This document shows positions 6,061-56,684 of a stretch of 64,000 nucleotides of DNA, piece by piece. Below the pieces are notes generated by a model that saw nothing but the letters and a program-made list of their open reading frames with translations, searched no databases and was not told where the DNA came from. The translations under genes and the position numbers were made by a program. How positions within the stretch are numbered: position 1 is the first letter of the stretch; each line of letters starts with the position of its first letter. This stretch comes from a virus: positions 1 to 64,000 of the IMG/VR virus record IMGVR_UViG_3300006033_000016, one strand, 5' to 3'.

Positions 6061-6600
6061 TTAGTATCTCCATGCGTTCAAAAGTTCTCGTAGGGTGCGT
6101 GCGATGTTATCGTGCATCCTCGACATGCCACGCTTCCCGTAGGAGGCCATCTCTTTCGCCTGCCTCCACTCAATAGAAGCTTGGGTCCAATATGATTGAA
6201 TTTGCTCTTCTTTGTACTTGCGGTATTGAGAGTAAACCTGTGAGTTGTACTCTGCGAACGTCATAGATGTATGAAGAAGACGTGTCCAAGGAACCCACTG
6301 AATGATTCCTTCCCCCTCCTTCTGTACTAATTCGTTTGAATGACGAAGAGCCAAAAAGCAGTAGGTCCAAAAAGGCTCGCCCTGAGGAGAAAGGCACACC
6401 CCTTGGTATAGCAGGACGAGGTCTTTTACTAAAAGTCCAGTTTCTTCTTCAACTTCTCGAACGCACGCGTGTTCAGGAGTCTCCCCTTCGTCTAGCTTTC
6501 CTCCGGGAAGACCAAGATCATTCGCGTTGTCTTTTCTAGATATGGACAAGACATATCCACTATTCTTGTCTACAACCACAACACAAGATGCTTGTCTCAT
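6061..6600 (-). CDS. Nudix hydrolase
   Basis: Nudix box GGKLDEGETPEHACVREVEEETG. Confidence 0.9.
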   Translation of the reverse strand: MRQASCVVVVDKNSGYVLSISRKDNANDLGLPGGKLDEGETPEHACVREVEEETGLLVKDLVLLYQGVCLSPQGEPFWTYCFLALRHSNELVQKEGEGIIQWVPWTRLLHTSMTFAEYNSQVYSQYRKYKEEQIQSYWTQASIEWRQAKEMASYGKRGMSRMHDNIARTLRELLNAWRY

Positions 6601-8312: not shown

Positions 8313-9152
8313 TCAGTCTTCGTTTTTCATGTCAGACTGCATGTGGTCCTCTTCGTTCGCTACTCTTAAAAGTACATCGGCATGGCAGATTTTCGGAGCA
8401 CACCAACAAATTAGGTGCTTTCCCTTGAGTTCTCGTTTCACTGCTCGCACCAGACGAGGCTGAGAGAGGAGCCACTCCTCATACTGTCTCAGAACTTCCT
8501 CTCTATCTTCTTCACGGTCTAGCTTGAACGGATTTCCCCATTTGGAGGGACGTCCTACGTAGACAGAGGGAATGCCTTTAGGCGGTTGAGGGTGCCCACT
8601 CCTCTTATTCCACACACGAGGAATGAGACTCTTGGGAGTTCTATCAGAGAAAAATGCGTCAAGGAATTCTTCCTCGGTCTCCTCTGTTTCTCCCCTCAGT
8701 TCGGCACGGATCTCCATCCACAATCTTCCAAGCCAGTTCTCCCCTTTCTGATCAGGTCCCCAGCCCCAAAAAGAATCGTGAGGAGAGTCTTCTATGATTT
8801 TCCTGTATTCGGTTCTAAGAAGAGTATGCTTGACGTCTTCATGTTGCTCTACCTTATGCCGCAGAGCCGATCTCATCACATCTAGCTTTACTTCTTCCCA
8901 GTCTGGACGTAAGAGCTTTCTCTTTTTATCCCTTCCCAGCAAGGCAGCCTCCTTAGGAGTCTTAGCGCTGGCAATCTTATGGGCGTAGAGAAGGTCTGTG
9001 GGGTTGAACTTAGAAGACTGGTAGAAGTGTTCACACGTCTTGTATCTCTTTCCCTTCACCAGGATGGAGTGAGTGGAGAAGTTAGAGAAACAACCGTATG
9101 GACCCTTGGTAGAATAGAATAGAATGTGGTCGTTTACCCTGGATCGCATCAC
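8313..9152 (-). CDS. NADAR (YbiA-like) domain fused to DUF4326
   Basis: FSNF...EHFYQ...EDSPHDSFWG...GENWLGRLWMEIR; C-terminal YVGRPSKWGNPF...LICWCAPKICHADVL. Confidence 0.85.
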   Translation of the reverse strand: MMRSRVNDHILFYSTKGPYGCFSNFSTHSILVKGKRYKTCEHFYQSSKFNPTDLLYAHKIASAKTPKEAALLGRDKKRKLLRPDWEEVKLDVMRSALRHKVEQHEDVKHTLLRTEYRKIIEDSPHDSFWGWGPDQKGENWLGRLWMEIRAELRGETEETEEEFLDAFFSDRTPKSLIPRVWNKRSGHPQPPKGIPSVYVGRPSKWGNPFKLDREEDREEVLRQYEEWLLSQPRLVRAVKRELKGKHLICWCAPKICHADVLLRVANEEDHMQSDMKNED

Positions 9153-16579: not shown

Positions 16580-17353
16580 TCATTCTTCCTCCAACGCCAG
16601 GAACCTGTTGATGTAATCCCTGTCCTGAGAGAATGTAGGAATGTTTTCATCCACAGTCCAACGGCTTCGGAGGACAACTCCAGTTGAGCCTTCAACGGGG
16701 TAAGTTTCTCTCAGTACACACCTTCCCCGCTTCTGCTGCACGGGCAGGTCGTTCCAGTTCTGGCCCTTCTGAAAGCACATCTCCTGTAGCTCGGAACCGT
16801 TCTTGTTGTTGCACTCTTTGTGAGAGTACAAGGAACGCGCAAGAGACTGCACGCTGTTGCGGACGGCGTCTTGCTGTCGCCACAAGAAGTAGTTGCAGAC
16901 GTCAGCTTCGGGAAGAACGAAGGCACGACAGTCGAAATAGGCGGGTCGAATCAGTGATGCCTTGTTAGGCACAGATTCCTTATCAAAGAGCGTCCACGAC
17001 CAAGAGGTGAATGTAGCCGCAGCAATGGAAGCAACAACGGAGCAGGTCTTCTGAACTCGGCCGTTGAAGTACGGCTGAGAGTTGAATGTCTTGTACCCAT
17101 GTACCAGGATAGAAATCTCGTCACTTTGGACGTAAGCGATCTGAGCCCCTTGGATATCCTCACACAGCTTAATGGCAGTAGTATTCATCACCTCTACGAG
17201 AGAGGGATCCCACGGTCTCTTTAGTCCTCGTGTGTACGAGTGAAAGGCTTTACCATCCACACGCAGAATCACAGGAAGACGAGGAGGCAGGGTATAGTCC
17301 ACAACTGCTTCGTAGGACTTCATTCGGTCGCCAAGAGAATCTTTTTGAGTCAT
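16580..17353 (-). CDS. thg1: tRNA(His) guanylyltransferase Thg1-like protein
   Basis: LGDRMKSYE, RVDGKAFH, YVQSDEIS, FDCR, YFLWRQQDAVRNS. Confidence 0.92.
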   Translation of the reverse strand: MTQKDSLGDRMKSYEAVVDYTLPPRLPVILRVDGKAFHSYTRGLKRPWDPSLVEVMNTTAIKLCEDIQGAQIAYVQSDEISILVHGYKTFNSQPYFNGRVQKTCSVVASIAAATFTSWSWTLFDKESVPNKASLIRPAYFDCRAFVLPEADVCNYFLWRQQDAVRNSVQSLARSLYSHKECNNKNGSELQEMCFQKGQNWNDLPVQQKRGRCVLRETYPVEGSTGVVLRSRWTVDENIPTFSQDRDYINRFLALEEE

Positions 17354-28352: not shown

Positions 28353-28934
28353 TCAGGAATTCCTGCACTTTGAAGGTTCAGAGTAAAGAGTACACATAGC
28401 CACATGAAATCCTGCATCCAATGCCAACAATTCTTTGTTCAGATCGTCTGCAGTATCAGGACCTTCTAAGTAGAAGAAGTCGGTCTTGGTCACATACTCG
28501 AAGGGTATCTGTGCAAGAACCTCAGCTACACTAGGCTTAAACAAAGCATAATGTCCGTAGTGATGAAGAGTACGAAACCTTACCAACGGAACCAGGTTCG
28601 GAACTTCGTCTCCTTCGTCTTCTTCAGAAGCACCCCACAGATAAGATTCGTGAAAAGGGTGTGCTGACCTACTCATGGTCCGAAGACAGTCCCCGACGAG
28701 CTGAAGTGGGAAAATCCTATCTATGAGGCCCTTAAGATGTCCCCACCCCTCTTCGTAGGGGTCTTTTCCGTCTGGGCAAGGAACGAAATCAAGTGCCTCT
28801 TTCTTGAATGCGTCCAGTACAGCAGTATATCCGTCAGAAGACCTATAGGGGAGTTCCTTGTACCCCGCTAGGTTCGCTGCGGTGACGGCCCTGGAGTATG
28901 CCGTATCTTCGTGATAGGGGATGGATTTTGTCAT
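28353..28934 (-). CDS. Conserved hypothetical protein
   Basis: TLHHYGHYALFKPSVAEVLAQIP motif. Confidence 0.6.
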   Translation of the reverse strand: MTKSIPYHEDTAYSRAVTAANLAGYKELPYRSSDGYTAVLDAFKKEALDFVPCPDGKDPYEEGWGHLKGLIDRIFPLQLVGDCLRTMSRSAHPFHESYLWGASEEDEGDEVPNLVPLVRFRTLHHYGHYALFKPSVAEVLAQIPFEYVTKTDFFYLEGPDTADDLNKELLALDAGFHVAMCTLYSEPSKCRNS

Positions 28935-29488
28935 CGTACTAACTTACGAAAAGTAAGAGAAATTCTTCCGCCACAAGATTCAGAATGCTTAGGAATGCGG
29001 TGGAGGTGGTCAGCCTGAAATCCTCCAGGCATAATTACCAAGTCTCCAGGTTTCATAAGAATCTTCTGGTCTTCCGGTATCTCACCTTTTTGTGTACGAG
29101 GTTTCCACCAAAAGTACCTAGACGCCCCGAAAGCAATCACTGCAATCGGGTGGTCTAGGTCCTGTTCCGGAGAGTCGTCAGCGTGCCATCCTAGATGCTG
29201 GTGCTGATCCTTGTAGTAGTTCAACACGCAAACGTTGTACGAGCACTCGAAATCTTTATTGAGGTTTTCGGCTATCCTACGAACCTCTTCATGCATGGGA
29301 ACTGCCGTGTAGGTGTGTAGAGCCTTTCGGTGCTCGTTGGAGTTCCCATAACTGTACACCTGAGGAGCAGATTCGAGTGCCATAAAACATTCGTCTCTAG
29401 GAGACGACCTGTTTACCCATGGAACCTCCTGCTCCAAGATAGGAAAGATATCGCGAGACAAGTAGCTATCTTGAACAATGGGTCTCAT
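28931..29488 (-). CDS. alkB: AlkB-family 2OG-Fe(II) dioxygenase
   Basis: LNYY...GWHADD...HRIPK...RISLTFR. Confidence 0.88.
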   Translation of the reverse strand: MRPIVQDSYLSRDIFPILEQEVPWVNRSSPRDECFMALESAPQVYSYGNSNEHRKALHTYTAVPMHEEVRRIAENLNKDFECSYNVCVLNYYKDQHQHLGWHADDSPEQDLDHPIAVIAFGASRYFWWKPRTQKGEIPEDQKILMKPGDLVIMPGGFQADHLHRIPKHSESCGGRISLTFRKLVR

Positions 29489-41388: not shown

Positions 41389-41781
41389 TCAATCTTCCAC
41401 GGGTTCGTCGTCTAAGATAACAGGAGTTCCTCCTAAAGTCACAGCCCCTCCGCCTGGGTGAAGTGTGCCAAATCTTGTTTCGAATTCTTCAAAATCAGGA
41501 GAATCCGAGTCTTCATCCTGGTCTTTGTTTTTAATGCGAATCAAGGCACAACGAAGGGATAGTTCGGCGGCTCTTTCCGTGTAAAGATCTAGCATTTTAC
41601 GTTGTATTTTTTTCAGGTCCAGTATGGCATCAGAAAAGTTAGATTTTGGGTGACGAGAAATAAACTCTGACAGAAGAGCTGTCTCCCGAGTCAGGTCCAG
41701 ACTTGAGCTAACCAGGCTTTCATTGATGATGTCTACTCTAGCGTCAAGCATTTCAATCAAAGAATCAATGTCCATGATCAA
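41389..41781 (-). CDS. Hypothetical protein
   Basis: 130 aa ORF. Confidence 0.55.
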   Translation of the reverse strand: MIMDIDSLIEMLDARVDIINESLVSSSLDLTRETALLSEFISRHPKSNFSDAILDLKKIQRKMLDLYTERAAELSLRCALIRIKNKDQDEDSDSPDFEEFETRFGTLHPGGGAVTLGGTPVILDDEPVED

Positions 41782-43124
41782 GACCCTTCCTTAACCATCC
41801 AAGGAACCTGAGTAGGCATGACATTCTTATGCGCCTCTAAGGTGTTATGATAGCACTCTGACACAGAAGAACGAGAAAAAGACACACAAGGAGGAGCTGA
41901 GATACGTGACCGTACGTCCTCCATCTTCAAACGAGGAAAGAAGATGCGGGCGGAGTCGACGAGAACGGACTCCCCGACTGTTCTTTCTGAAAGGGTGGCA
42001 GTGTCTGCTGTTGTATCATATAAATACGAGCAGGATCCGAGCTTGGTCCAAATCTTGGCTCCAGGAAGGCTAGTCTTGTTTCCAGCCATCTTTATGACAG
42101 GCTTTCCTTCCGCGGCCACTAGCTTATAGACGAAGCCCATCGAGAACCCTGGATCACTAATTCTGGAACCTATTCCGATACCGTCTATAGGTATGAATTG
42201 GCCCAGAGAAGAAATCTTCTCCTCGCAGAAATCTCCAGATACTACTATCTTGGTCCCGCTGAATCCCATACCGTCCAAGGTAGTTCTAATGAACGGAACC
42301 AGAGACTTAATTTCCCCCGAATCAAGACGGACTGCATTGAGCGGTATGTGTGTCTCGAATGATGCACGAATGGCATTAAGTATACCCTTCCTCACATCGT
42401 AAGTGTCAATGAGAAGGGAGTTGGTTTCGGGATAGGACCTAAGAAAATCCTTGAACGCAGATAGCTCCCCACCCAAACCATAGGACATGACATATGAATG
42501 GGCCATAGTGCCTCGAACAGGCGTGCCGTAGACTCGGCCTGCCTCTAAATTAGAGGTGGCGTCAAATCCGCCAACAATCGAGTCCACTGCCACATGAACT
42601 GCCTGAGCCTCATGAATTCGACGAGTACCAAACTCGAAAAGAGATATTCGAGAAGGAGTCACTCGTCGAATCTTGTGAGCAAGTGATGCTGTACGGACAG
42701 AAGAGTTCAAGATACTGAGTATCTGTGTCTCCAGGAGATGGACCCAGCATATGGGGCCACAGACTTGTACTACGGGGTGATCGTAATAAATGCGCTCTCC
42801 ATCAGGAGCACACACTATGCTGACACGTTTAAACGATTGTACAAAATCATTATGAAGCCAGGCGTGAAAGTCGTCAACGTGGCCGTGAGGAATGAAAGAT
42901 TCCAAAAGATCTTTAGTAATAAGGGAGACGGAATCTAGAAAGGAAGAGGTGTGTACCAGCTCTGCTATCCTATACGCTCCAGACATGATAATGTCATTTG
43001 TTGACAAATCCGTTGGAACCCTGCGGAAGTATGCCTCTGCTGTCGCCAACACCTTGTGTCGACCACTCCTCCAATGGGAGTAGACCATTGCCAGCTGATA
43101 GAAGTCGGTGTTTGTGATGTACAT
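41778..43124 (-). CDS. pncB: Nicotinate phosphoribosyltransferase
   Basis: TDFYQLAM, EFGTRR, GTMAHS, LIDTYD, VRLDSG, VYKLV. Confidence 0.9.
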   Translation of the reverse strand: MYITNTDFYQLAMVYSHWRSGRHKVLATAEAYFRRVPTDLSTNDIIMSGAYRIAELVHTSSFLDSVSLITKDLLESFIPHGHVDDFHAWLHNDFVQSFKRVSIVCAPDGERIYYDHPVVQVCGPICWVHLLETQILSILNSSVRTASLAHKIRRVTPSRISLFEFGTRRIHEAQAVHVAVDSIVGGFDATSNLEAGRVYGTPVRGTMAHSYVMSYGLGGELSAFKDFLRSYPETNSLLIDTYDVRKGILNAIRASFETHIPLNAVRLDSGEIKSLVPFIRTTLDGMGFSGTKIVVSGDFCEEKISSLGQFIPIDGIGIGSRISDPGFSMGFVYKLVAAEGKPVIKMAGNKTSLPGAKIWTKLGSCSYLYDTTADTATLSERTVGESVLVDSARIFFPRLKMEDVRSRISAPPCVSFSRSSVSECYHNTLEAHKNVMPTQVPWMVKEGS

Positions 43125-45031: not shown

Positions 45032-45288
45032 CGGTACGAAACAGGCTTGTGCGACACACCAGTAAGCTTGTTCGATGCGCCAGTGGGTTTATGCACTTCG
45101 TTCAAGTGAGCCTGGACCTTTCCTGCGTCTTCCTTCGACAGGTGGCTTGTGTAGGAGGGGTCTATAACGTGTTCGAAAACCAAGTTTAGATGGTTCTTTA
45201 CCGCTTCGACCTGCTTGGGAGACAAGGTCTCTACGTCAGACAGCTCAAAGAATCCTTGCAGCCAGTAACAAAAAGCTTCAGGGGTCAT
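45025..45288 (-). CDS. Conserved phage hypothetical protein
   Basis: MTPEAFCYWLQGFFEL motif. Confidence 0.65.
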   Translation of the reverse strand: MTPEAFCYWLQGFFELSDVETLSPKQVEAVKNHLNLVFEHVIDPSYTSHLSKEDAGKVQAHLNEVHKPTGASNKLTGVSHKPVSYRC

Positions 45289-45311
45289 ACTAATCCTTTC
45301 TAATGCAGCGG

Positions 45312-45402: not shown

Positions 45403-46188
45403 TCACCCGAGCAAAGATACAAGCTCGGACAATCCCTTGTATTCTACCATATCGGAAGACATGTTCAATAGAGCTTCCCTCAAAATGTTCCTTCTTTCTT
45501 CTGACAATTCCTTTACAGGATAGACGTACACACGTATCAGGAATATACTACCATCGCTGTCTGGAAGAGGAAAGGTTGACTGTCTCTCTACACGTAGGTA
45601 GGAATCCTCCAGAGAAGAAAACCTTACGGTCCTGGTGTCTGGATGCTGACTGAGAGCATCCTCTGAAGTGACAGTCCACACAAACCTAACGTAGGGCCCA
45701 CGGGTCACCATGGCCTTAACAAGGGAAGAAGACGTTCCCATAGGAAATCCAGGAATGGGCTTGTGGATTTCAGAGAACGTTTTTCCAAGGAGATGTTCGG
45801 GCCGCCACCCACTAGGAAAATTGACACTGAGCGCAACGATCTTTCCGCTATACTCGTGACCAGCAGAAAGAACGACAATGTCTTCCTGCACAGTGGACGC
45901 GAGAGAAGCGAAGAATGAAGGTACCTCTCTAGGTATAGGAAGGTCTGGAAGGTCGAGCCTCCCAACCCTCTTCATGTACAAGCAAGCATCACGAAGGAGA
46001 CCAAGATGGTCCGGACTATACTGAAAGAAGTTTCTCTTTGCCTTTTGGTTTACGTAGAGTTCGTAGAACTCATCACGCTGAAACATCTCCAGGTCTGACT
46101 TTCCATTTCCGAAGTCTGTTCCGTGTCTGAACAAGCCCAGCTTGTTCTTCTCGTCTACGAACTCAAGAGGAAAATAGAAAGGTATCAA
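45403..46188 (-). CDS. DUF3445 / heme-dependent oxidative N-demethylase alpha-like protein
   Basis: QED, FPSGW...GK...EIHKPIPG, RFVW, YLRVERQ, FLIRVY. Confidence 0.75.
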   Translation of the reverse strand: MIPFYFPLEFVDEKNKLGLFRHGTDFGNGKSDLEMFQRDEFYELYVNQKAKRNFFQYSPDHLGLLRDACLYMKRVGRLDLPDLPIPREVPSFFASLASTVQEDIVVLSAGHEYSGKIVALSVNFPSGWRPEHLLGKTFSEIHKPIPGFPMGTSSSLVKAMVTRGPYVRFVWTVTSEDALSQHPDTRTVRFSSLEDSYLRVERQSTFPLPDSDGSIFLIRVYVYPVKELSEERRNILREALLNMSSDMVEYKGLSELVSLLG

Positions 46189-47784: not shown

Positions 47785-48162
47785 TCAAATAGGACCCTCG
47801 TCATCAAACAACGAAAGAAGGATACGCACGTCATTTGCATGTGAGGCAAGCCTTCCTAGGTAGAAGGAAGGAGAGTCTAGGCGGTCCGCCTCTGAGGGAT
47901 CGTTGGAGAGTCCCAGCAACGTTACCTTTGCGGAGGGAAATTCATCTACTCTTCGCGTCACACGAATCAACGCCCTGCGAGCTAGACGGATACCTTCCAG
48001 CACAGCCCATAGACGGCGTATCTCCTCTAGGTCGCACCCATACATGTCTTCTCGACGACCTAATTCGTCACGAAGAAGAGCACGTTGCGTATCTGCCGCT
48101 GACTTGAGGGCGTCAAGAGACGCGCCCACACGCTTGCGTAAACCTGATTGAGTCGGAATCAC
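47785..48162 (-). CDS. Hypothetical protein
   Basis: 125 aa ORF. Confidence 0.5.
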   Translation of the reverse strand: MIPTQSGLRKRVGASLDALKSAADTQRALLRDELGRREDMYGCDLEEIRRLWAVLEGIRLARRALIRVTRRVDEFPSAKVTLLGLSNDPSEADRLDSPSFYLGRLASHANDVRILLSLFDDEGPI

Positions 48163-48500
48163 GACAACCTTATCTCTACGCCACGGATTTCACCAAAATT
48201 ATCCAAAACTAGACGTGTGGAAATATACTTAGACAGTTCTTTATTGAGAACGTGTACTACGTCAGCAGGATGAAATTTGACTAACAATGGATGGTTCATC
48301 ACAAGTTGAACTGTAGGTTTTGTCACCTTAAGTGAGTCACACATCCACCTAGAAAGCATCTCTGCCACAAGGGGAGGGACATGTTCAGCCACGTCCCTCC
48401 TTATCTCGAAGGAAAGACGATCTACAAGATAGTCTGCCTGCTCTATGTTTCCTCGTACAGATATCTCGTTGTGCGACGATAGTACGTTTTTCCAATCCAT
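48159..48500 (-). CDS. Hypothetical protein
   Basis: 113 aa, AGGAGG RBS. Confidence 0.6.
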   Translation of the reverse strand: MDWKNVLSSHNEISVRGNIEQADYLVDRLSFEIRRDVAEHVPPLVAEMLSRWMCDSLKVTKPTVQLVMNHPLLVKFHPADVVHVLNKELSKYISTRLVLDNFGEIRGVEIRLS

Positions 48501-48523
48501 ACTTCCTCCTGTGCTGCTTAAAC

Positions 48524-48554
48524 AGAAAGGGCCCGCAAATTGCGGGCCCTTTCT
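48524..48554 (-). terminator. Intrinsic terminator after the Ro60 gene
   Basis: agaaagggcccgca-aat-tgcgggccctttct, 3 nt past the stop codon. Confidence 0.8.
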
Positions 48555-48557
48555 AGC

Positions 48558-50183
48558 TCAGTCCACTTGCATGGACTCTATTCTCTCAACCCAAAAGCTG
48601 GAGTCTGACCCCTGGGCGAAAGCAGAGACTACCTCAAACACGCTGTCAGAAAAACCGCCAATGTTGAGAACGGAGTTCCGCTCATCGGCGACTTGAGTCG
48701 TGGCATACGGCTGAATGTCGATGCAAACCAGCTTGCAGTCAGGGTTCTTCGCCTTGATGCGCTGCCAGCCAGCCTCAGAGGCGGTGGAAGCCCTACCCCA
48801 AGAAGAGACGGGTCTATCTAGCCACGATTCGTTGTCCGATACAATGATGATAACATCAGCCTTCTTGCCTTGAAGATGCTCAAAGCAGAGCGATACAGTG
48901 GTACCACCGCCACCAAATGAGGCCAACTTCTTCGCATTTGTCATAACCGAATCTCTTGGGTTTAGAGAAGCGGCGTGCATACGCGTGTCAAAAGGAAGCA
49001 CGTTGGCAGTGGGTGACGTACGAAGAATTGATGCTGAAACAAGCGCAGCAACATCAATACAACGGACACCAGTAGTAGCGCCCTTACGATGGCCTGTCAC
49101 TGGGCTGCTCATGGAGCCAGATACGTCAGGAAATACCCATACGTTCCCAGAGAGCGGAGGAACATTCTTGGTAGCTATCTCCATAGCATCCTGAAGCGCC
49201 AGTTTCAGTGGCATGGGGATATCCGAAGACGCCTCAGTAGCCTTGTACGCCATCAGAAGTTGATACGGGAATACTCTGGAACTAGAGATTTCTTTCTCGT
49301 CCCTAAGCTTGTCCGCCAGCTTTGACACTACGTCCGCATTCTTTAGCACACCATGGCGCGCAAAAGTGTTTAGATTCATACGAACAAAGTGCCAGCCACC
49401 GTTCAATGCAATCTCGGTCCACTGCTTTGTGTCCAGGTCCAAAGAAGTAAGCAACTGGAAGGGAACCTTGGGTACAGATGCTTTCTTGGGATTGGCCTTG
49501 AAAGCCTCAAACTCCCGAATAGAGTCAGGAAGAGTGGAAGCGATTCTTGCACCTTCTTTACCCAGAAGGTAATTGAAGGTGGCATGCTTCGCTGCATCAG
49601 ACCCAGACTTAGGATGTGCCAACTTAATGACATCCACCAAAGAAGGATCGTTGCCTACGGAATCACGAAAGATTTGGTCAGCAGTTCTGCGGTCAAACCA
49701 ATTGTTGATCACGCTCTTGCCCATGGTGCCGAGGCTCTTCCGCCCCGTAACACCAGATCGAACTACCTGCACGAAGTTTCGGAGCATCTTTGCGTTGTCA
49801 ATGACAATCGGAAAAACGGTACGAAACAAGCGGGAGGCCTCCACATCATTGTTGCCGGCACGAGCAAAAAGAACAGCCACCAAAAGGGCAGGCATGTCTT
49901 TCATGAAGGCAGACCTCCTGGAGTAAATGGCGGTCTTGGCAAGGAAGACGTTGTCCACCTTGGATGCCAGCTCCAGAGTCTTCGTCAACTGGTCCGAAGC
50001 AGAAGCGTAGTACGTGTTGCTGAAGGTGCCTGTGCAGGCATATTGCGCAAGGGCGGCACGATTTGTGAGCGGGTAAGCCAGACCTCCCGCTTCATTTCGA
50101 GTAACCTTTCCCTTAGAATCTAGGGGAACGGCCCTCGGCCTCTTACCTGCCGTAGCACCACCAAAAATAGACTTATTAGCCAT
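48558..50183 (-). CDS. rsr: Ro60/Rsr TROVE-domain RNA-binding protein with C-terminal vWA
   Basis: RNEAGGLAY, TGTFSNTYYAS, MKDMPA, RMNLNTFARHG, FPYQL, DVSGSM, SDNESW, IGGFSDSVF; GGAGG RBS. Confidence 0.93.
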   Translation of the reverse strand: MANKSIFGGATAGKRPRAVPLDSKGKVTRNEAGGLAYPLTNRAALAQYACTGTFSNTYYASASDQLTKTLELASKVDNVFLAKTAIYSRRSAFMKDMPALLVAVLFARAGNNDVEASRLFRTVFPIVIDNAKMLRNFVQVVRSGVTGRKSLGTMGKSVINNWFDRRTADQIFRDSVGNDPSLVDVIKLAHPKSGSDAAKHATFNYLLGKEGARIASTLPDSIREFEAFKANPKKASVPKVPFQLLTSLDLDTKQWTEIALNGGWHFVRMNLNTFARHGVLKNADVVSKLADKLRDEKEISSSRVFPYQLLMAYKATEASSDIPMPLKLALQDAMEIATKNVPPLSGNVWVFPDVSGSMSSPVTGHRKGATTGVRCIDVAALVSASILRTSPTANVLPFDTRMHAASLNPRDSVMTNAKKLASFGGGGTTVSLCFEHLQGKKADVIIIVSDNESWLDRPVSSWGRASTASEAGWQRIKAKNPDCKLVCIDIQPYATTQVADERNSVLNIGGFSDSVFEVVSAFAQGSDSSFWVERIESMQVD

Positions 50184-50240
50184 GAGACACCTCCATAGGA
50201 GTAGGGTTAATACACTAACGCACCCGTACGATGCGCAAAC

Positions 50241-50585
50241 TTACTTGAGTCTGTTTTCCGTGTAAGCCACACGGTCTTCTGTTTGTCCCCATGTGTGTAG
50301 CAGGGAGTTCATTGCACGAGACAAGAAGTCCGTTCTGGCCTCTCCTAGCTTCTCCCGTGCAGCCTTGGAGAAAGCTAATACACCTGTAAGTACCGTTGGA
50401 GGATACCTGTCAGTGCATATGGAGGCCAGAACATACTTGACTTCTTCCCACTCGCCTGCGTACATGAGGTCATCCATCAGGTCTATGATGGAATCTACGG
50501 ATTTCATGTGGGAAGTTCTATCGTTAGACAGAATAGAAAAAGAAGATAAGAGCACGGAGTTAGTTCTATCCCTTAGAGTAGCCAT
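50241..50585 (-). CDS. Hypothetical protein between the Y RNA array and Ro60; paralog of 44711-45031
   Basis: Start moved to ATG 50585 (GAGAGG RBS) to clear the Y RNA. Confidence 0.65.
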   Translation of the reverse strand: MATLRDRTNSVLLSSFSILSNDRTSHMKSVDSIIDLMDDLMYAGEWEEVKYVLASICTDRYPPTVLTGVLAFSKAAREKLGEARTDFLSRAMNSLLHTWGQTEDRVAYTENRLK

Positions 50586-50605
50586 GCCTAATCCTCTCAA
50601 AAAAT

Positions 50606-50673
50606 GTAGCGACAGAAGATGTATGAGACGAGTTTTCTCCAATGAAATGTAGTCCCACACTAGCATTCGCTAC
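50606..50673 (-). ncRNA. Y RNA 1: minimal Ro-binding stem without tRNA domain
   Basis: GTAGCGA-ATGC...GGGACTACA...GTCTC...TTCTG-TCGCTAC, same motifs as the other four copies. Confidence 0.7.
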
Positions 50674-50676
50674 GTT

Positions 50677-50750
50677 TGGTTGCGGTCGCCGGAGCTGCCC
50701 CAGGTCCTATAGGTTATGAGCCTATCGTGCGTCTACTACACTACCCCGCA
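50677..50750 (-). tRNA. Degenerate tRNA-Met(CAU)-like RNA
   Basis: ATAGG-CTCATAA-CCTAT arm and ACCA end; T loop GGCAGCT and mismatched acceptor/T stems. Confidence 0.6.
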
Positions 50751-50755
50751 AAAAT

Positions 50756-50876
50756 GGACGACAGAAGGTGAAAGAGACATATACTAGCACCTTGCTCCCT
50801 CCCTAAGGAGGGCCTGGGAATCGAACCCAGATCGTTTGATTAACGGTCAAATGTAGTCCCAATCGGTCATTCGTCC
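50756..50876 (-). ncRNA. yrlA: Y RNA 2 (YrlA-like, permuted tRNA mimic)
   Basis: GGACGA/TCGTCC terminal stem; T arm CTGGG-TTCGATT-CCCAG; closed acceptor CCCTCC-TTAG-GGAGGG; short D-like hairpin. Confidence 0.8.
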
Positions 50877-50885
50877 GAAACATAT

Positions 50886-51009
50886 GTGCTGACAGAATTG
50901 AAAAAGACGTAGTTACTGATGTCCTTCCATTAGACTAGATCTCCGGAGAGACCTCGGGAGTCGAACCCGAATCCCCAGTTTGGATTGTAGTCTTTCTCGC
51001 ATTCAGCAC
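50886..51009 (-). ncRNA. yrlA: Y RNA 3 (YrlA-like)
   Basis: GTGCTGA/TCAGCAC stem; T arm TCGGG-TTCGACT-CCCGA; closed acceptor GGTCTC-TCCG-GAGATC; D arm TAGTCTAATGGAAGGAC. Confidence 0.85.
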
Positions 51010-51020
51010 GAAAAAAAAAT

Positions 51021-51154
51021 GTGGCAACAGAAATCGCAAGAGTGAATTTACGCGTGCTACTCTTACACTAAGCTGCGTCAAAAATCGCAGCCCCAGGAGT
51101 TGCACCTGGTCCTCGTCCTCCGAATGGATGTACACCCTTACAGGCATTTGCCAC
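51021..51154 (-). ncRNA. yrlA: Y RNA 4 (YrlA-like)
   Basis: GTGGCAA/TTGCCAC stem; T arm CCAGG-TGCAACT-CCTGG; closed acceptor GCTGCG/CGCAGC; D arm TAGTGTAAGAGTAGCAC. Confidence 0.8.
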
Positions 51155-51182
51155 GTAACCTATTTAGTTTTCAGAGTCGGTG

Positions 51183-51210
51183 ACTCTAGCAGTCTTCAAC
51201 CGAGTGTCAA
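51183..51210 (-). promoter_or_regulatory. Sigma70-like promoter for the Y RNA-Ro60 unit
   Basis: T-tract, TTGACA, 16 nt, TAGAGT with extended -10 TG; about 30 nt upstream of Y RNA 4. Confidence 0.6.
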
Positions 51211-51231
51211 GAAAAAAGTGAAGACTCTGGT

Positions 51232-51480
51232 TCAACTAGTATGCACAGGGTTCGTCCTATCTAAGACTGCTGGAAGTTCTCTTTCCAGCACAACTGTCAC
51301 GACTTCCGGATCAACGGGAGATACTATCACGTTTACACAACGCCACCCGTCATCAGCATGACTAGTCAAACTCTTTTGAAGAAGTTCTGCACTTAACACG
51401 TGCTTGTAGTAGGTTCCTGTCTCGTCGTACTCTGCTGACGTAATGTCTACGATCTCTACAAGGTATTCAAACTTCTTCAT
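51232..51480 (-). CDS. Small protein, DUF4177-like
   Basis: KFEYLV...L...DDGWRCV...LERE. Confidence 0.5.
   Translation of the reverse strand: MKKFEYLVEIVDITSAEYDETGTYYKHVLSAELLQKSLTSHADDGWRCVNVIVSPVDPEVVTVVLERELPAVLDRTNPVHTS
51238..51252 (-). promoter_or_regulatory. Repeated motif AACCCTGTGCATACT
   Basis: Copy 7 of 7; in the last codons of the upstream ORF, ahead of the Y RNA array. Confidence 0.55.
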
Positions 51481-52186
51481 TGGACGCCTTCTTAGTTAGA
51501 GACTTCCTTACGGAGACAGACTTTACTGGCACACTAACCACACCTGGGCGACCTGGAATACCACGCAAACCGACCCACCCATGCTCAGGTTCGCTGCTCA
51601 CTACGGCTTCGTGTTGACGTCCGTTGTCGTCCACAAAAACGCGATCTCCAGGCTTCATGTTTCAAGATTGTTTCTTTTGAATGTCTGGTTATGTTGTCTA
51701 AGTGAAGAGAATAAACAAGGTGTACACCAAGATCGCGTTGGCTCTACACAAAAGAGCCATGGGTAGGTTGTGGTACTACCATCCTTAGTAGATTACTTCT
51801 TTGTTCTACAAGAACGAATAAAATAAGAGAAGGACTCTGAAGAGGAATTTTTGTCTATGTTCTCTTCTTTAGGCGAGTCACTGACTGAACCCCTCAGCGC
51901 CTTTATCAATTCTGGTAAACTTGTGATAAGCGCGGGAAGACAAACGAGAGCCAGCTCTTTCAGAAATTCTTTGTGCTCACTCACAAATATCCGTTTCTCT
52001 TGGCCCATTCTCTAGCTCTTCTTCTCGCGGTATCTGCGGGCAGTCTAGAAAGACTCTGAAATAAACGAATAACGTTTGGATCCCATGCTTGCTTTCTGGC
52101 AACTTTTATGGAAGACCCTAAAGCAAAGGAGAGGATAGCATCGACACTGGAGGAGTTTAGAATAACTGGAGACCAATCGATTCTAA

Positions 52187-54379
52187 TCATGACATATCCT
52201 CTTCCATCCTAAAGCCTATTCCAACAGGAAATCTTGGGATTCCGTCATCTGTGAGATCGAAGTACTTTACCTTCAACAAGCACCCCACATAAGATTCGGC
52301 TTCTTGCAGAAGTCTTTTTCGCTCTTCCATCGAGCCCATGGATACCACCTGAAAGGTGTTATCTCCAGCTTTACAGATCCATACAGCACAGTCAGCAAAC
52401 TTGCCCTTGCCCGTAGTATACCCTACAACCTCATACTCCGAGTCATTAAAGGATTTGACCTTGAGTAATCTCTTGGACCTATAAGCAAACTGATATTTGC
52501 TATCATCGTACATCCTGACGATGGCTCCCTCGTACCCTTTCGAGACTACCTTATTGTGGATCCTAAGGATTTCGTCTTCGTTGTGAGCCTCATAAGTCTC
52601 GACCAAATGAACAACGTCCCCTAATCTATGGGAGGATGTGTTAAAGAAAGCGTATAGGTGGTGATACCTGTCAACCCAGCTGGCGCTTCGGTCATTAAGC
52701 AGCACACAGTCGTACACATGATATTGTATCTTGCTTGTGTTCGCTTGTAACTTCTTCACCCACGAAGTAATGGTCTGAAACCCGACTCCGTGCAAGTAAA
52801 GCTCCCCGTCTAAAACTAGATTCGGAGGGAGGACGTTCTTCAGAACAGAAATTATGTGAGGACAGTTGTACTCCTTCCCTCCTCGGGAAAGGAGCTTCAA
52901 GTCTTCTCCGTCCCAGTAAGCAAGAGCCCTACAATTATGGATAACATGTCCATTCGCCACATATGTGTGGTTGTCTTCAACCTCGATGTCATATTTAGCA
53001 GCAACAGGCATGAACTTAGCGTGCCTCACATGGAATCGCTGCCAGACAGGTCCTTTTGTTACAGGTCTTACATACCCTTCAGTCGGGAAGTAAAACTTGT
53101 ATTCAACACCCTTGCAGTGCTTTGTTCTTAACTTGTTCAAGATCCAAAGAGTGTCCTTGGTACTAAAGCAAAGAAACTTTCCAGGGACATTACCGGTGTC
53201 CTCTACTACCTTGTCTGTGTACACAGAAGGAGTACAATCCCACTCTGATCTAAAGTATTTCCTGTATTCCTCGATCTGATCCTCTGAAGAGGAGTGAGTG
53301 TGCAAGTATAAACGAGGCGTGGTTGGGTCTCCATTATTATTCTGTATGGAACCATCATCACCGATCCACAATGCCAAGGCTTCTGGGGAAAGAAGCTCAC
53401 GTAAGGTTTCGTGATACACTACCTTACGTTTTCCAACATTAGGTGAGTGACCTGTGTGATAAAACCTAGATATAGGGAATGTGGACGAAGTGAGAGCGGA
53501 AGAAATGAACGCCTTCCCTCTGGATCCAAATCCAGAAGTGTACGTTACAGACGAGCCAGTGAGCCCTAAAAGGCTCTTCTTGAATTCAAAGAATTCTTTG
53601 TTTGTATGAGCGAACTTTGACCTGTATGATGTCCCAGACCCACGTTTTTCCACGACCAGCATAGAATCACCCAGGAGGGTCCCAGCCAGCAAAGAGTTGA
53701 AGTACGAACTGTCGTCAAAAGAAAGTATTAGATCGCATTTAGGGTCTAGGTCTCGGGCTTCCTTCCATCCAGATGGAGTGAGAAACTTATGATCGCTAGT
53801 GCACTTAATGTGATTACCAAATTCAGGAACTACGTCTAACCAATGAGTGTGGTCCGCATACCCGTTATTGAACCAACCTACAACTCTCTTAAACTCAAAC
53901 ACCTCTTTGCTTTCATTGTAAGAGAGAACTTCTAGGGAAAGTCTCCCTTCTACAATTTCTTGGATTGTCTTTGGTCCATCTGAGGTAGTCAAGACTGTGC
54001 TACCATAGACGCAACCATCCAGTTTAGGCTGCACGTCACACGGATAGGTGTGACCGTCCTTCTTCTGACCTCTTCGCTTCTCGAATTCAGAAGCCAACAT
54101 GGGAAGAAATATCTCATCATTTTTGGCTTCATCAATAGTACGACGATACTTTCTCTCTACTCGATGAGTCCACATGGACTTAGCTTCAGCAACCGCTTGT
54201 TCTTCTGGTGTGGTGGCATTGGACTTGTCCACGTTCTTGGCGTCAGCTGTCTTTCGAGCAAGCTGCTTTTTACCGTCTATTTGACCATATTCTGTGCACA
54301 CGTCAGCTCCCTCTGTCCATACTCTCCAGGAGTATAGAGCACCAGAGGAACCCTTGTGGTATAAGGTGTCAAACTGCAT
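52187..54379 (-). CDS. lig: ATP-dependent DNA ligase interrupted by an intein
   Basis: QPKLDG/CRA motif I split by the intein; LDGELY, YDC, YEGAIVR, LLKVK, PRFP; start at ATG 54379. Confidence 0.92.
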   Translation of the reverse strand: MQFDTLYHKGSSGALYSWRVWTEGADVCTEYGQIDGKKQLARKTADAKNVDKSNATTPEEQAVAEAKSMWTHRVERKYRRTIDEAKNDEIFLPMLASEFEKRRGQKKDGHTYPCDVQPKLDGCVYGSTVLTTSDGPKTIQEIVEGRLSLEVLSYNESKEVFEFKRVVGWFNNGYADHTHWLDVVPEFGNHIKCTSDHKFLTPSGWKEARDLDPKCDLILSFDDSSYFNSLLAGTLLGDSMLVVEKRGSGTSYRSKFAHTNKEFFEFKKSLLGLTGSSVTYTSGFGSRGKAFISSALTSSTFPISRFYHTGHSPNVGKRKVVYHETLRELLSPEALALWIGDDGSIQNNNGDPTTPRLYLHTHSSSEDQIEEYRKYFRSEWDCTPSVYTDKVVEDTGNVPGKFLCFSTKDTLWILNKLRTKHCKGVEYKFYFPTEGYVRPVTKGPVWQRFHVRHAKFMPVAAKYDIEVEDNHTYVANGHVIHNCRALAYWDGEDLKLLSRGGKEYNCPHIISVLKNVLPPNLVLDGELYLHGVGFQTITSWVKKLQANTSKIQYHVYDCVLLNDRSASWVDRYHHLYAFFNTSSHRLGDVVHLVETYEAHNEDEILRIHNKVVSKGYEGAIVRMYDDSKYQFAYRSKRLLKVKSFNDSEYEVVGYTTGKGKFADCAVWICKAGDNTFQVVSMGSMEERKRLLQEAESYVGCLLKVKYFDLTDDGIPRFPVGIGFRMEEDMS
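52934..54013 (-). mobile_element. Intein (360 aa) with LAGLIDADG homing endonuclease
   Basis: Starts CVYGST, block B CTSDHKF, LLAGTLLGD and LWIGDDG, ends YDIEVEDNHTYVANGHVIHN followed by Cys. Confidence 0.92.
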
Positions 54380-54633
54380 CAAAGAGGGTCCTTTTCCACA
54401 CACTCAGGGCACAGGATAGATACCGCGTCATAGTATGGAATAGTATTTGTATACCTAAACTTTGAGTCAACGAAATATCCATATCTTTCTTTCCACATCC
54501 ATCCGGCAGGAAGAGTCAAGTTATGGTGTTTCGTGTCCTCAGGCTGAAGTGGTCTGACCTCTCCGACAAAAACTTTCATATCCGCTTGTGCGGCGCACCT
54601 GTGGCATTCCACAGTCATGTGGCAGTAGAACAT
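54379..54633 (-). CDS. Small Zn-finger protein
   Basis: CHRC...CPEC; TGATG overlap with the ligase. Confidence 0.55.
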   Translation of the reverse strand: MFYCHMTVECHRCAAQADMKVFVGEVRPLQPEDTKHHNLTLPAGWMWKERYGYFVDSKFRYTNTIPYYDAVSILCPECVEKDPL

Positions 54634-55184
54634 CAGCGATGCGCAGATATGAGAGTCAAAGCTAGACTGCTTAGATGTATGCGAGAAACATCATCAGAGG
54701 TTAGCCTGGAGAGCTTGTCTTTTATTTCAGGGTTCGCGCAGGCCACCTCTACCGCTCGGCCCGGTTTGGGTCTTCTGCTGTCGCAAAGAGAATCTAAGGA
54801 GATACGCTCCAAAAGCGAGGGATAGTCTGTCATCTCATACCTAATTTCTTAGAAGGTTTGTAGAGAGGCATAATTTTGGAAAATGGATTATTATCTGCCT
54901 TAGGCGCAGTAACTAGAGTGAACCTGGAGTCAAACTCCAGTCTGGGAACATACTGCAATCCCCTGCACGGACCAGGTCCCTGCAGGCCTACCGGATCGGC
55001 GCCCTCTTGGGTAACTTCCCACCAGGTGGTTCCTGACTCATCTGCCCATAATTTAGCTTCTCGGGTCATAAATCAAGTCTCTTGCGCAGGCCGCTAATCT
55101 TTAGCGATAAGTAGATACTAACCAAAACCAAGGGCGGCGATACGAGAGCTTCTACAAGGGTCATACCACCCTAAATAGGATGGG

Positions 55185-55577
55185 TTAGGAACAGTTCAGT
55201 ATACCCTTCTGTGACTCTTTTCTAAACCTGTCTTCAAATCGAGACCTAAGGTCAAGATACCTTTTGTAGTCCAACTCTTCTCTTTCGAGCTTCTGAGATT
55301 CGATGAAGGATTCGTAGTCGGACGTCCAGGATTCCAGGGGAATACTTTCTTTTTTCACATCTCCATGAAGAACCGTCAGTTTCTTTAGCTTGGAAAGGGT
55401 ATCTGCTGCGGACAGCTCATATCTCTTACTATCAGCCAAAATAGAAATAACCCACTCTTTAGCTGCCGCCAGGGCAGCTTTCTTTGTAGGGTATATTTCA
55501 TATTCGTAAAACGGACTGTCAGAGTTGTAAGATACAACCCATATCTTTTTGATTCTCCGTGCCATTTCACACCCCAA
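55185..55577 (-). CDS. Hypothetical protein
   Basis: About 126-130 aa ORF. Confidence 0.55.
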   Translation of the reverse strand: MGCEMARRIKKIWVVSYNSDSPFYEYEIYPTKKAALAAAKEWVISILADSKRYELSAADTLSKLKKLTVLHGDVKKESIPLESWTSDYESFIESQKLEREELDYKRYLDLRSRFEDRFRKESQKGILNCS

Positions 55578-55834
55578 TAGACTTGAGAAGATTCAACCAA
55601 TCCTTTACAGGATAAAAGGTGTGGCCCTCCGAAGTCCAAAAGACCCATCCTCCTGCCTTCTGGGCAAGGGATAGAAGGTGAGTCATCTCTGGATAGGATA
55701 GGGATTCAATTCGAATTTGACCTAAGGAGGCTCTCCACAGAGATACCTCCCAACCCACTACAGGGTGAGATCCATGTTCCTTTACGCACAAGCGAATTAC
55801 TTCTTCAGAGAGGAGACGTTGGTTCTCTGATAGT

Positions 55835-55987
55835 TCACTCGGAGGAAGCATCGGGTCGAATCTTACAGGCACAGAAGTGAGAATCAAAGTAGTGATCCGG
55901 AGCGCAAAGTACAGGTCTACAGGTGGGCTCTGGAGGTATTGCCGGAGCGCAAGAAAACAAAAGGAGTAGAGATAGCAAGCGAATCAT
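55835..55987 (-). CDS. Small Cys/Pro-rich lipoprotein (50 aa)
   Basis: Manual translation MIRLLSLLLLFSCAPAIPPEPTCRPVLC...; lipobox-like LFSC. Confidence 0.5.
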   Translation of the reverse strand: MIRLLSLLLLFSCAPAIPPEPTCRPVLCAPDHYFDSHFCACKIRPDASSE

Positions 55988-55999
55988 GATAAAAACTTT

Positions 56000-56119
56000 T
56001 GGCCCCACACCCAGGAATTGAACCCGGATTCTGCTAGTACGTAACTACAACGGACCTAAGGTGGCGTTATGAGCCCGGTTTTCAGGACTCAAGTAGCAGA
56101 AGCTCTCCAGAGATGTGGG
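56000..56119 (-). ncRNA. tRNA-like RNA with expanded anticodon domain
   Basis: Acceptor CCCACAT/GTGTGGG plus G-CCA; T arm CCGGG-TTCAATT-CCTGG; 8-bp TTCTGCTA/TAGCAGAA helix enclosing 57 nt. Confidence 0.7.
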
Positions 56120-56142
56120 ATACTCCTCATATAAGGATAGAA

Positions 56143-56451
56143 CTAACCTCTTTTGTGCCAAACAGGCTGACTAGTTGCGTGACTTCCCCCTTTGGTCGAC
56201 ACCCAACGTACGAAAGAAGCTACTTTTTCGTGAGCCAACAACTTATCCAAGGTGTTGTACTCTGACCCCAAATTCTTTTCTGGAATGAAGCGATGTATGG
56301 CGTCGTGGCAGTCACGGCACACCATAATTCCTGAGTCTAGCTGTTCTTTAGAGAAGGTCTTCTTAAACCATTTTCTCGTGTGTAGAGTTCGTGGAATAAG
56401 ATGATGAAAGGTGAGAGGCAACTCTCTAGAACAAAGAGTGCAGTTAGACAC
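56143..56451 (-). CDS. Small HNH-fold protein
   Basis: CTLC...TFHHLIPR...CRDCHDAIH. Confidence 0.7.
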   Translation of the reverse strand: MSNCTLCSRELPLTFHHLIPRTLHTRKWFKKTFSKEQLDSGIMVCRDCHDAIHRFIPEKNLGSEYNTLDKLLAHEKVASFVRWVSTKGGSHATSQPVWHKRG

Positions 56452-56452
56452 G

Positions 56453-56602
56453 TCAATCTTCCTTCAATAACAAAGACACGGTAAACGCAAAAACACCGGC
56501 GCCTACATTAATACCTACCAAAGGCTGACCTTCCGCATAAAATGCAGCCAATCCGAATCCTATCGCAGCTACTACGGCAAAAGTGAAGGACCAGAGTCTC
56601 AT
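56453..56602 (-). CDS. Small two-TM membrane protein (49 aa)
   Basis: Manual translation MRLWSFTFAVVAAIGFGLAAFY...SLLLKED. Confidence 0.5.
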   Translation of the reverse strand: MRLWSFTFAVVAAIGFGLAAFYAEGQPLVGINVGAGVFAFTVSLLLKED

Positions 56603-56606
56603 CTTT

Positions 56607-56681
56607 TGGAGCCTTGGGTGGGGATTGAACCCACGACTTCCTCCTTACCAAGGAGGTACTCTGCCACTGAGTTACCAAGGC
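56607..56681 (-). tRNA. tRNA-Thr(GGU)
   Basis: Canonical cloverleaf with CCA. Confidence 0.93.
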
Positions 56682-56684
56682 AAA

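Follow-up and report, generated by a model that had tools for sequence, protein, structure and literature searches.

A Ro60 operon with a multi-copy set of Y RNA genes, linked to tRNA genes, in a large phage

Ro60 and its Y RNAs are conserved from bacteria to humans, and human Ro60 is an autoantigen in lupus and Sjögren's syndrome. To our knowledge, no binding partner of the tRNA-like Y RNA module is known yet. In bacteria and phages, the available text of Chen et al. 2014 (PMC4201824) counts 355 YrlA RNAs in 254 bacteria and 22 phages; phage G and 20 mycobacteriophages account for one each, and CcrColossus for a tandem row of three. The effector of YrlA predicted in the accessible part of its crystal-structure paper (10.1101/312249) is a protein that binds the tRNA elbow; also cited there is a proposed origin of YrlA from tRNA dimers. 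Here we describe a phage Ro60 operon with four Y RNA genes (Y1–Y4) ahead of the protein gene, found in the first 64 kilobases (64,000 nucleotides, “the window”) of the 132,998-bp virus record IMGVR_UViG_3300006033_000016, which CheckV rates 34% complete. A fifth copy (Y5) lies elsewhere in the window and two more (Y6 and Y7) beyond it. We consider it highly probable that these are genuine Y RNA genes and partners of the phage's own Ro60, transcribed, processed and docked on the protein, where they would tether it to a host factor.

A common handle and differing inner modules

The protein at the end of the operon is a Ro60 in full length, with TROVE and the Ro60-type vWA domain: Pfam gives vWA_Ro60 (PF25045, 7.8e-13, 49.1 bits, cut-off 27.7) and TROVE (PF05731, 3.4e-6, 27.0 bits, cut-off 23), and the match to phrog_850, “RNA-binding protein,” is at 4.8e-43. 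Its closest solved structure is Deinococcus Rsr (2NVO, E 1.2e-23, residues 14–525), followed by the Ro60 of Thermus phage phiLo (9KOP/9L5Y, 3e-11), with human and frog Ro60 weaker. Matches to the protein occur in 370 of 50,697 phage records. The closest cultured relative, Myxococcus phage Mx1, has a Ro60 of 50.5% identity, and the Ro-like proteins of mycobacteriophages and Streptomyces phages are about 23–26% identical. A protein search of viral contigs gave 20 loci, among them L009 (on a 392-kb contig rated 100% complete), with 75% identity. Together with the Rfam YrlA matches, the covariation and a covariance model built without the phage's own sequences (see below), the Pfam and PDB matches uphold the identification made by an earlier, sequence-only reading, that of a phage Ro60 operon with Y RNAs of the YrlA/YrlB type.

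All seven RNAs are built on one handle: a terminal stem of 6–7 bp, an internal loop of AAUG(C) facing (U/C)CUG, and a second helix (helix 2) ending in an unpaired UACA. The terminal stems, AATG/YCTG loops, second helix and TACA that had been quoted for the five window copies were all found on reading the sequence. The loop is entered from CGAAUG, exactly, in Y1, Y2 and Y6, from UGAAUG in Y3 and Y7, and from CAAAUG in Y4 and Y5, with the partner strand changed to match. One mark of a Y RNA is a long stem of its 5′ and 3′ ends with a Ro60-binding motif, quoted in Chen et al. 2014 as GNCGAAN0-1G, and here the stem, the AAUG/YCUG loop and helix 2 are present in 7/7 copies. A mark that Chen et al. 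2014 use for YrlA, a position within about 4 kb of a Ro60 ortholog, applies to Y1–Y4, which share the strand of Ro60 and precede its start codon by 423–971 nucleotides (nt); Y5 (6.9 kb) and Y6 and Y7 (about 15–16 kb) are further away.

Inside this handle, the module varies, and the proposal of one Ro60-type handle with differing inner domains thus holds across the copies. The YrlA-type tRNA mimic, a circularly permuted arrangement of T arm, loop-closed acceptor stem and D arm, is full in Y3, Y4 and Y5 and partial in Y2 and Y6; Y1 has a bare hairpin and Y7 a multi-hairpin domain, neither with a tRNA mimic. Four copies had been credited with the complete mimic. The arrangement is clear in three of them, but the D arm of Y2 is reduced, and in Y4, otherwise complete (terminal stem GTGGCAA/TTGCCAC, helix 2, V hairpin, T arm, closed acceptor-like stem, D arm), the T loop reads TGCAACT, which is non-canonical. 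The V hairpin of Y2 resembles an anticodon arm, with the loop CCGTTAA.

The Y RNA signal in the record exceeds chance. A loose descriptor (a 6-bp stem, ATG ... CTG and the complementary stem, plus a TACA close to the 5′ side) matched 9 places in the whole 133-kb record against a mean of 2.05 in 20 mononucleotide shuffles (1-kb blocks), and the full AATG...TACA...CTGT signature is found in 7/9 of them, which are Y1–Y5 plus Y6 and Y7. The genome therefore has at least seven Y RNAs in this record, not the five first counted. Rfam sees part of this set: run at gathering thresholds it returned tRNAs only. At lower scores, Y5 (51.2 bits, E 2.7e-10) and Y3 (44.3 bits, E 2.1e-8 over 1 kb) match the YrlA model (RF02553) over its full length but fall short of the gathering score of 69, Y6 (20.3 bits) and Y2 (16.9 bits, E 1.8) score weakly, and Y4 has nothing in Rfam at E ≤ 10, so that no copy qualifies as YrlA by the gathering score. 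Y1 scores 16.8 bits against Rfam YrlB (E 3.4, not significant), and the 5′ half of Y2 gives a partial match to the Rfam tRNA model (22.2 bits).

Two models were made of the family itself. R1 was built from alignment A3 of 16 long copies (Y2–Y6 and eleven from relatives), and R2 from 28 sequences, all from other phages and none from the window phage; two MAFFT alignments, A1 (all five copies) and A2 (short forms), misplaced the 3′ strand of helix 2 and were not used for models. R1 recovers Y1, outside its training set, at 43.4 bits (E 1.9e-9). On the record, R2 gives 82.1–82.2 bits for Y5 and Y3, 81.4 for Y4, 72.1 for Y2, 56.4 for Y6 and 39.5 for Y1. Y7 was missed in the first R1 and R2 searches and recovered by direct cmsearch, with 32.1 bits for R2 (E 5.8e-7). 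With filters off, R2 finds exactly five matches in the window, at 39.5–82.1 bits, and the next, at 17.8 bits or less, are tRNA pairs.

The helices covary. On A3, RNAalifold predicts four helices, the terminal stem (7 bp), helix 2 (8 bp), the T arm (5 bp) and the acceptor-like stem (7 bp), and 24/27 of their pairs have compensatory changes over the 16 long copies. Run over 185,312 bases from the window record and ten related ones, R1 matched 77 times at E ≤ 1e-3; 71 of the matches are full-length, and 41 of those 71 have a T arm. In the alignment of the 77, which is fitted to the model, training rows included, and so leans towards structure, 95.3% of pairing cells pair, against 62.7% when shuffled and 41.5–53.9% with slid partners; double changes occur in 26/27 pairs, and the 512 double-change cells compare with 140.5 in shuffles, a value reached by 0/500. 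Covariation in homologous loci, the absence of which had been named as grounds for giving up the reading, is thus present in the RNAalifold result, in the R1 alignment and in a direct ortholog comparison: between Y4 and its counterpart in L009, the terminal stem shows two compensatory changes, helix 2 shows further ones, and the acceptor-like stem is wholly different in sequence with its pairing retained.

The same comparison (Y4 against L009:9138–9270) also shows the T loop changed from TTCGAGT to TGCAACT and the D loop from AAGGGTT to AAGAGTA. As the changed positions form the tRNA elbow contacts, a paired tertiary change is conceivable, and the two differences could be just that.

The features of the operon, and those of the outlying Y RNAs, are collected in Table 1. 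Nearly all genes of the window are on the − strand, and so is every element of the operon, which from 51260 to 48500 runs promoter-like site, Y4, Y3, Y2, tRNA-Met-like element, Y1, small open reading frame (ORF), Ro60 and hairpin; these elements lie where they had been placed.

Table 1. Coordinates of the Ro60 operon and of the Y RNAs away from it (positions in the window unless stated otherwise).
Feature	Position	Strand	Description
Promoter-like site	51183..51210	−	TTGACA, 16-nt spacer, TG-extended TAGAGT; ends 28 nt upstream of Y4
Y4	51021..51154	−	134 nt, YrlA-type; then 11 nt (A, T9, C) before Y3
Y3	50886..51009	−	124 nt, YrlA-type; T arm, closed acceptor-like stem, D arm; then 9 nt before Y2
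Y2	50756..50876	−	121 nt; T arm, closed acceptor-like stem, reduced D arm; then 6 nt (ATTTTT)
tRNA-Met(CAU)-like element	50681..50749	−	Degenerate; 6 nt after Y2, 7 nt (ACCAAAC) before Y1
Y1	50606..50673	−	68 nt, minimal, YrlB-like: handle and short hairpin, no tRNA-like domain; A and T6 behind; 20 nt to the small ORF
Small ORF	50241..50585	−	114 amino acids (aa); between Y1 and Ro60; GAGAGGA ribosome-binding-like site in the 20 nt before it
Ro60/Rsr	48558..50183	−	541 aa, TROVE and vWA; Pfam, PHROG and PDB matches
Terminator-like hairpin	48520..48549	−	GC-rich GGGCCCGC-loop-GCGGGCCC, then T-rich TTTCTGTTT; begins 9 nt past the Ro60 stop codon
Y5	57112..57235	−	124 nt, YrlA-type; 5 nt past an ORF stop codon, 3 nt upstream of tRNA-Trp
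tRNA-Trp	57035–57108	−	ARAGORN call; downstream neighbour of Y5
Y6	66094–66194 of the record, outside the window	−	101 nt; T arm, no D arm; 4 nt before tRNA-Asn
Y7	65323–65477 of the record, outside the window	−	155 nt; unrelated multi-hairpin inner domain; 3 nt before tRNA-Asp

Where two promoter candidates had been proposed, the scan has a single good one. It agrees with the consensus at 10/12 positions, which is weak alone, the region holding 3 such sites in the pattern scan against 2.5 expected. In L009, however, the −35 element (TTCTTGACA) and CTGCTAG recur at unchanged spacing between diverged flanks; the putative promoter upstream of Y4 is, on this comparison, conserved between the two phages. 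The hairpin behind Ro60 is known from inspection and is absent from the pattern-scan listing. The tRNA-Met-like element has an intact D arm and an intact anticodon arm, an acceptor stem of only 4 pairs and an abnormal T arm; it scores 23 bits with the Rfam tRNA model (gathering score 29) and is not called by ARAGORN. The small ORF has no Pfam or PHROG family and no tblastn match within ±10 kb of Ro60 across 21 related loci (L009–L029), which rules it out as a conserved Ro60 partner, and its standing as a coding gene is unproven.

Linkage to Ro60 and to tRNA genes

The tie between RNA and protein does not depend on how the locus was chosen. Among ten larger viral contigs found through the RNA motif and R2 alone, eight encode a Ro60 homolog of 37–50% identity. 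The bare motif is a poor guide: a scan of the viral collection for the handle (GAATGC-N5-9-GGACTACAT) met at least 123 stretches, and since only 26/80 of the loci listed also have an R2 match at E ≤ 1e-3, most occurrences are chance and the motif on its own was rejected as a Y RNA marker.

The second linkage is with tRNA genes. ARAGORN calls were set against Y RNA matches in the same 15 stretches, two tRNA-dimer false positives being dropped, and 42/69 Y RNAs were found to have a same-strand tRNA within 12 nt, 25 of them on both sides; random placement gives 5.1 ± 2.1 abutting copies, with a maximum of 12 in 500 trials. In five relatives the order is tRNA, Y, tRNA, Y. At the upstream junction (L034, L036, L035, L032), about two bases, often CU, with no encoded CCA, come behind the tRNA's discriminator base, and the next base is the first of the Y stem; at the downstream junction in the five relatives, 3–12 nt lead to the next tRNA. 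The window phage has the downstream junction only, at Y5, Y6 and Y7, with the tRNA-like element standing behind Y2. Given this juxtaposition, processing of the Y RNAs by RNase P and RNase Z is plausible, and the tRNA-embedded arrays fit the tRNA-dimer model of YrlA origin.

Several further observations concern these tRNA surroundings. Y7 is preceded, at a distance of about 20 nt, by a piece of sequence that resembles a tRNA-Asn 3′ end with its trailer, a hint that a tRNA-Y unit may have been duplicated. In Mx1, the copy at 45521–45624 (L043:3022–3125, 54.6 bits) starts 2 nt after tRNA-Ile and lies under a hypothetical coding sequence, WNM70101.1 (45524–45646), which is probably not a gene. At 69202–69312 of the record (− strand, outside the window) there is an element with T arm, closed acceptor-like stem and D arm, and without the AAUG/CUG Ro60 handle; it scores 28.9 bits with Rfam YrlA, R1 and R2 match its middle part only, and its core is 88% identical to L031:15580–15636 of a 392-kb relative, with different flanks. 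Directly after tRNA-Trp (56961–57033, −) follows a tRNA whose anticodon is GAA and whose T loop is odd, at 42.5 bits in Rfam and uncalled by ARAGORN.

An anticodon-like V hairpin (7-nt loop, U at position 2, purine at position 6) was found in 8/41 T-arm matches, or 6/39 once the two tRNA dimers are set aside, and the V hairpin was on that count rejected as an anticodon arm in general. Examples are L030:1578–1717, L038:1018–1146, L043:3022–3125 and L037:3413–3537, and ARAGORN calls a “tRNA-Ile” inside one; such hairpins may be relics of a tRNA origin.

The window (16580–17353, −) also encodes a Thg1-like tRNA-His guanylyltransferase (Pfam 1.9e-31; phrog_4717 5.4e-88), in a phage with 20 or more tRNAs. 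Enzymes of this kind act in tRNA 5′-end repair or maturation. A CCA-adding enzyme family is present in 2/5 records searched, including the complete relative G001, and the two enzymes together suggest that these phages invest in their own tRNA supply.

Multi-copy sets are the rule in this clade. Counted over whole records with R1 (full-length, E ≤ 1e-4, two tRNA-dimer coincidences excluded), the ten relatives have ten matches each in G001 (392 kb, complete) and G008, eight in G004, six each in G007 and G003, five each in G002 (a sixth, at 6.1e-5, appears in a separate R1 search), G005 and G009, three in G006 and two in Mx1 (170 kb). With 2–10 in each related record, seven in a fragment rated 34% complete is typical. 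The array had been framed as exceptional, with the caveat that its novelty would drop if such sets were common in other Ro60 phages. Both parts of that framing give way: these relatives all have multi-Y sets, and the three tandem YrlAs of CcrColossus were already published. Ro60 with YrlA in phages is likewise known; what is new is how large the sets are and that they are built into the tRNA arrays throughout a clade of large phages, and a full-text literature search found no paper with more than three Y RNAs per phage or with Y RNAs alternating with tRNAs.

Possible function of the Y RNAs

How the Y RNAs might work can be outlined as follows. They would be made within longer transcripts, namely the leader of the rsr operon, from the conserved promoter, and the tRNA arrays. 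Host tRNA-processing enzymes would excise them, RNase P cutting where the tRNA or tRNA-like element 3–6 nt behind Y2, Y5, Y6 and Y7 begins; RNase Z or exonucleases may share in the release, and the T-runs behind Y4, Y2 and Y1 may contribute through partial termination or trimming. Each RNA would then dock on Ro60 by its handle and gate the ring, with the tRNA-like elbow, or another inner module, tying Ro60 to host proteins. By analogy with the Deinococcus RYPER and with phiLo, the likeliest partner would be a host 3′–5′ exoribonuclease such as PNPase, and the outcome a redirection of RNA decay or quality control in the infected cell. A PNPase/RNase PH domain was found in 0/5 records searched, and any such nuclease partner would therefore be the host's; RtcB was found in 1/5 records searched.

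Several points weigh against this account. The highest Rfam YrlA score, 51.2, stays under the gathering score of 69, and Y4 is without any Rfam match. The CGAAUG core is exact in 3/7 copies, the other four differing at one paired position with the partner changed too. A single common effector is unlikely, because the T loop of Y4 departs from the tRNA consensus and Y1 and Y7 have no tRNA-like part. Two of the ten contigs retrieved by motif, both rated 100% complete, have no detectable Ro60 homolog. The relatives that supply the covariation were partly found through models trained on similar sequences, and at least 2/71 of the full-length matches are tRNA dimers and hence false positives. Finally, a search of sequencing runs with this stretch found 20 runs holding sequence, from 17 studies, and for window positions 48000–58000 the four RNA-labelled ones give read-sized contigs over 50903–51336 and short tRNA pieces; these four exist only as contigs, three are probably DNA, and all were selected through this very stretch.

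A different role would be that of cis-acting structured spacers, which let neighbouring tRNAs fold independently and offer clean RNase P and RNase Z sites, with binding to Ro60 secondary or absent. The 42/69 copies that abut tRNAs (25 on both sides), their alternation with tRNAs at fixed short distances in five relatives and the tRNA-like element between Y2 and Y1 are what this would predict. A spacer, however, has no need of a conserved AAUG/CUG loop or of UACA, four of the window copies stand in the rsr operon with no true tRNA adjoining, the motif co-occurs with Ro60 on 8/10 independently found contigs, and the handle resembles the Ro60-binding CGAA motif given in the accessible texts of PMC4201824 and PMC12135203. 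We therefore hold this reading to be very unlikely. Still less credible, to the point that we give it hardly any weight, is that the copies are decayed tRNA dimers or pseudo-tRNAs, the functionless debris of a fast-evolving tRNA array. Real tRNA dimers do score weakly with Rfam YrlA and with R1 and R2, and the model quoted in the available part of 10.1101/312249 derives YrlA from dimeric tRNAs. Against debris stand the strong covariation in four helices, the clean gap in bit score (32–82 against 18 or less for real tRNA dimers), the short forms that bear the same handle without any tRNA part, and the presence in L009, at a Ro60 identity of only 75%, of a Y4 ortholog with compensatory changes.

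The Ro60-Y particles or the tRNA mimics could also act in anti-defence, as a sponge or block for proteins of host defence systems that recognise or cleave tRNAs or other nucleic acids, in which case the varied modules would reflect different targets; this, which takes in the decoy role suggested by the earlier, sequence-only reading, we regard as quite unlikely. A precedent is the Ro60-like gp130 of phage Bas63, which counters the Ppl defence in a knockout screen according to the available text of PMC11482910, and the window has a NADAR-DUF4326 fusion, a NAPRTase-like protein and the Thg1-like repair enzyme. The anticodon-loop-like V hairpin of 6/39 genuine T-arm copies points the same way, but most copies lack it, and the YrlA topology, as far as the accessible part of 10.1101/312249 describes it, has no anticodon loop, this being replaced by the Ro60 handle, and a loop-closed acceptor end. 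A decoy for anticodon nucleases or CCA-end enzymes therefore fits poorly.

The tethering of Ro60 to a host factor thus remains the explanation that we favor. A further reading for this clade of Mx1-like large phages, tentative and in our estimate unlikely, is that Y RNAs are regular spacers of the tRNA arrays (tRNA-discriminator-CU/Y RNA/3–12 nt/tRNA) and so Ro60 docking sites inside pre-tRNAs: Ro60 with 5–10 Y RNAs would supervise, mature or shield the phage tRNAs, and the arrays would picture the birth of YrlA from tRNA dimers. If this is true, a host exonuclease or tRNA-elbow-binding factor could load co-transcriptionally, and the inner modules would address different partners.

A phage group with 5–10 different Y RNAs on one Ro60 would provide a natural variant series for partner finding, and the many Y RNAs placed between tRNA genes would tie Y RNA biogenesis to tRNA processing. 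Nearly all these genes escape standard annotation and the Rfam cut-off. The clade has a cultivable member in Mx1, where the Y RNAs are unannotated and one lies under a hypothetical ORF.

Among other genes of the window, all on the − strand, the NADAR-DUF4326 fusion (8313–9152), the NAPRTase-like protein (41778–43124), a 2OG-Fe(II) oxygenase (28931–29488) and a Nudix protein (6061–6600) form a set with a counter-defence or NAD-salvage flavor, judging by their families. At 52187–54403 is an ATP-dependent DNA ligase split by an intein with a LAGLIDADG homing endonuclease (Pfam).

Comparison with known Ro60 systems

In Salmonella Typhimurium, YrlA and YrlB (rsr-yrlBA-rtcBA; RF02553, RF02565) likewise lie beside rsr, according to the available text of PMC4201824. 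From the same text, Salmonella YrlA shares with the copies described here the terminal stem with a CGAA-type motif and, inside it, the T arm, loop-closed acceptor stem and D arm, and YrlB, the short partner without a full tRNA mimic, is the counterpart of Y1. Unlike Salmonella, the window phage scores below the Rfam gathering cut-offs, has seven copies instead of two and no rtcBA adjoining, and is a phage genome; three of its copies are 7–17 kb away from rsr, directly before tRNAs.

The phage systems are nearer in layout. Caulobacter phage CcrColossus also has a tandem row of YrlAs before its Ro60 on the same strand, three of them, 368–874 nt upstream of Ro, in the available portion of PMC4201824, compared with four in the operon and three elsewhere in the window phage. 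That portion reports no link to tRNA genes, and the CcrColossus Ro60 is not among the close relatives listed for the window Ro60. The cluster C mycobacteriophages (Bxz1 and others) are described in the same source as large phages with many tRNAs and a Ro-like protein with an adjacent YrlA. They differ in having one YrlA per genome, 159 nt upstream, and a Ro60 about 23% identical to that of the window. Mx1 (OR576727.2) has two family Y RNAs, at 45169–45294 and 45521–45624, beside tRNA genes and neither annotated. It differs in that two copies were detected, about 11 kb upstream of Ro60 and not in an operon leader.

For mechanism, the models are elsewhere. The Ro60 of Thermus phage phiLo (9KOP, 9L5Y), in the accessible text of PMC12135203, binds its own Yrl1 and Yrl2, which have the CGAA motif and lie upstream of the gene, and complexes in vitro with host PNPase, and is thus the template for the mechanism proposed here; it differs in having two RNAs and a distant protein (E 3e-11), and that text describes no tRNA-like domains or tRNA linkage. 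In the working model for Deinococcus radiodurans Rsr-Yrn1-PNPase (RYPER), the Y RNA gates the ring of Ro60 and ties the protein to an exoribonuclease, the same two tasks that we would assign to the phage RNAs, although that system is bacterial and stress-induced and its Yrn1, in the available text of Chen et al. 2014 (PMC4201824), has a differently arranged tRNA-like part.

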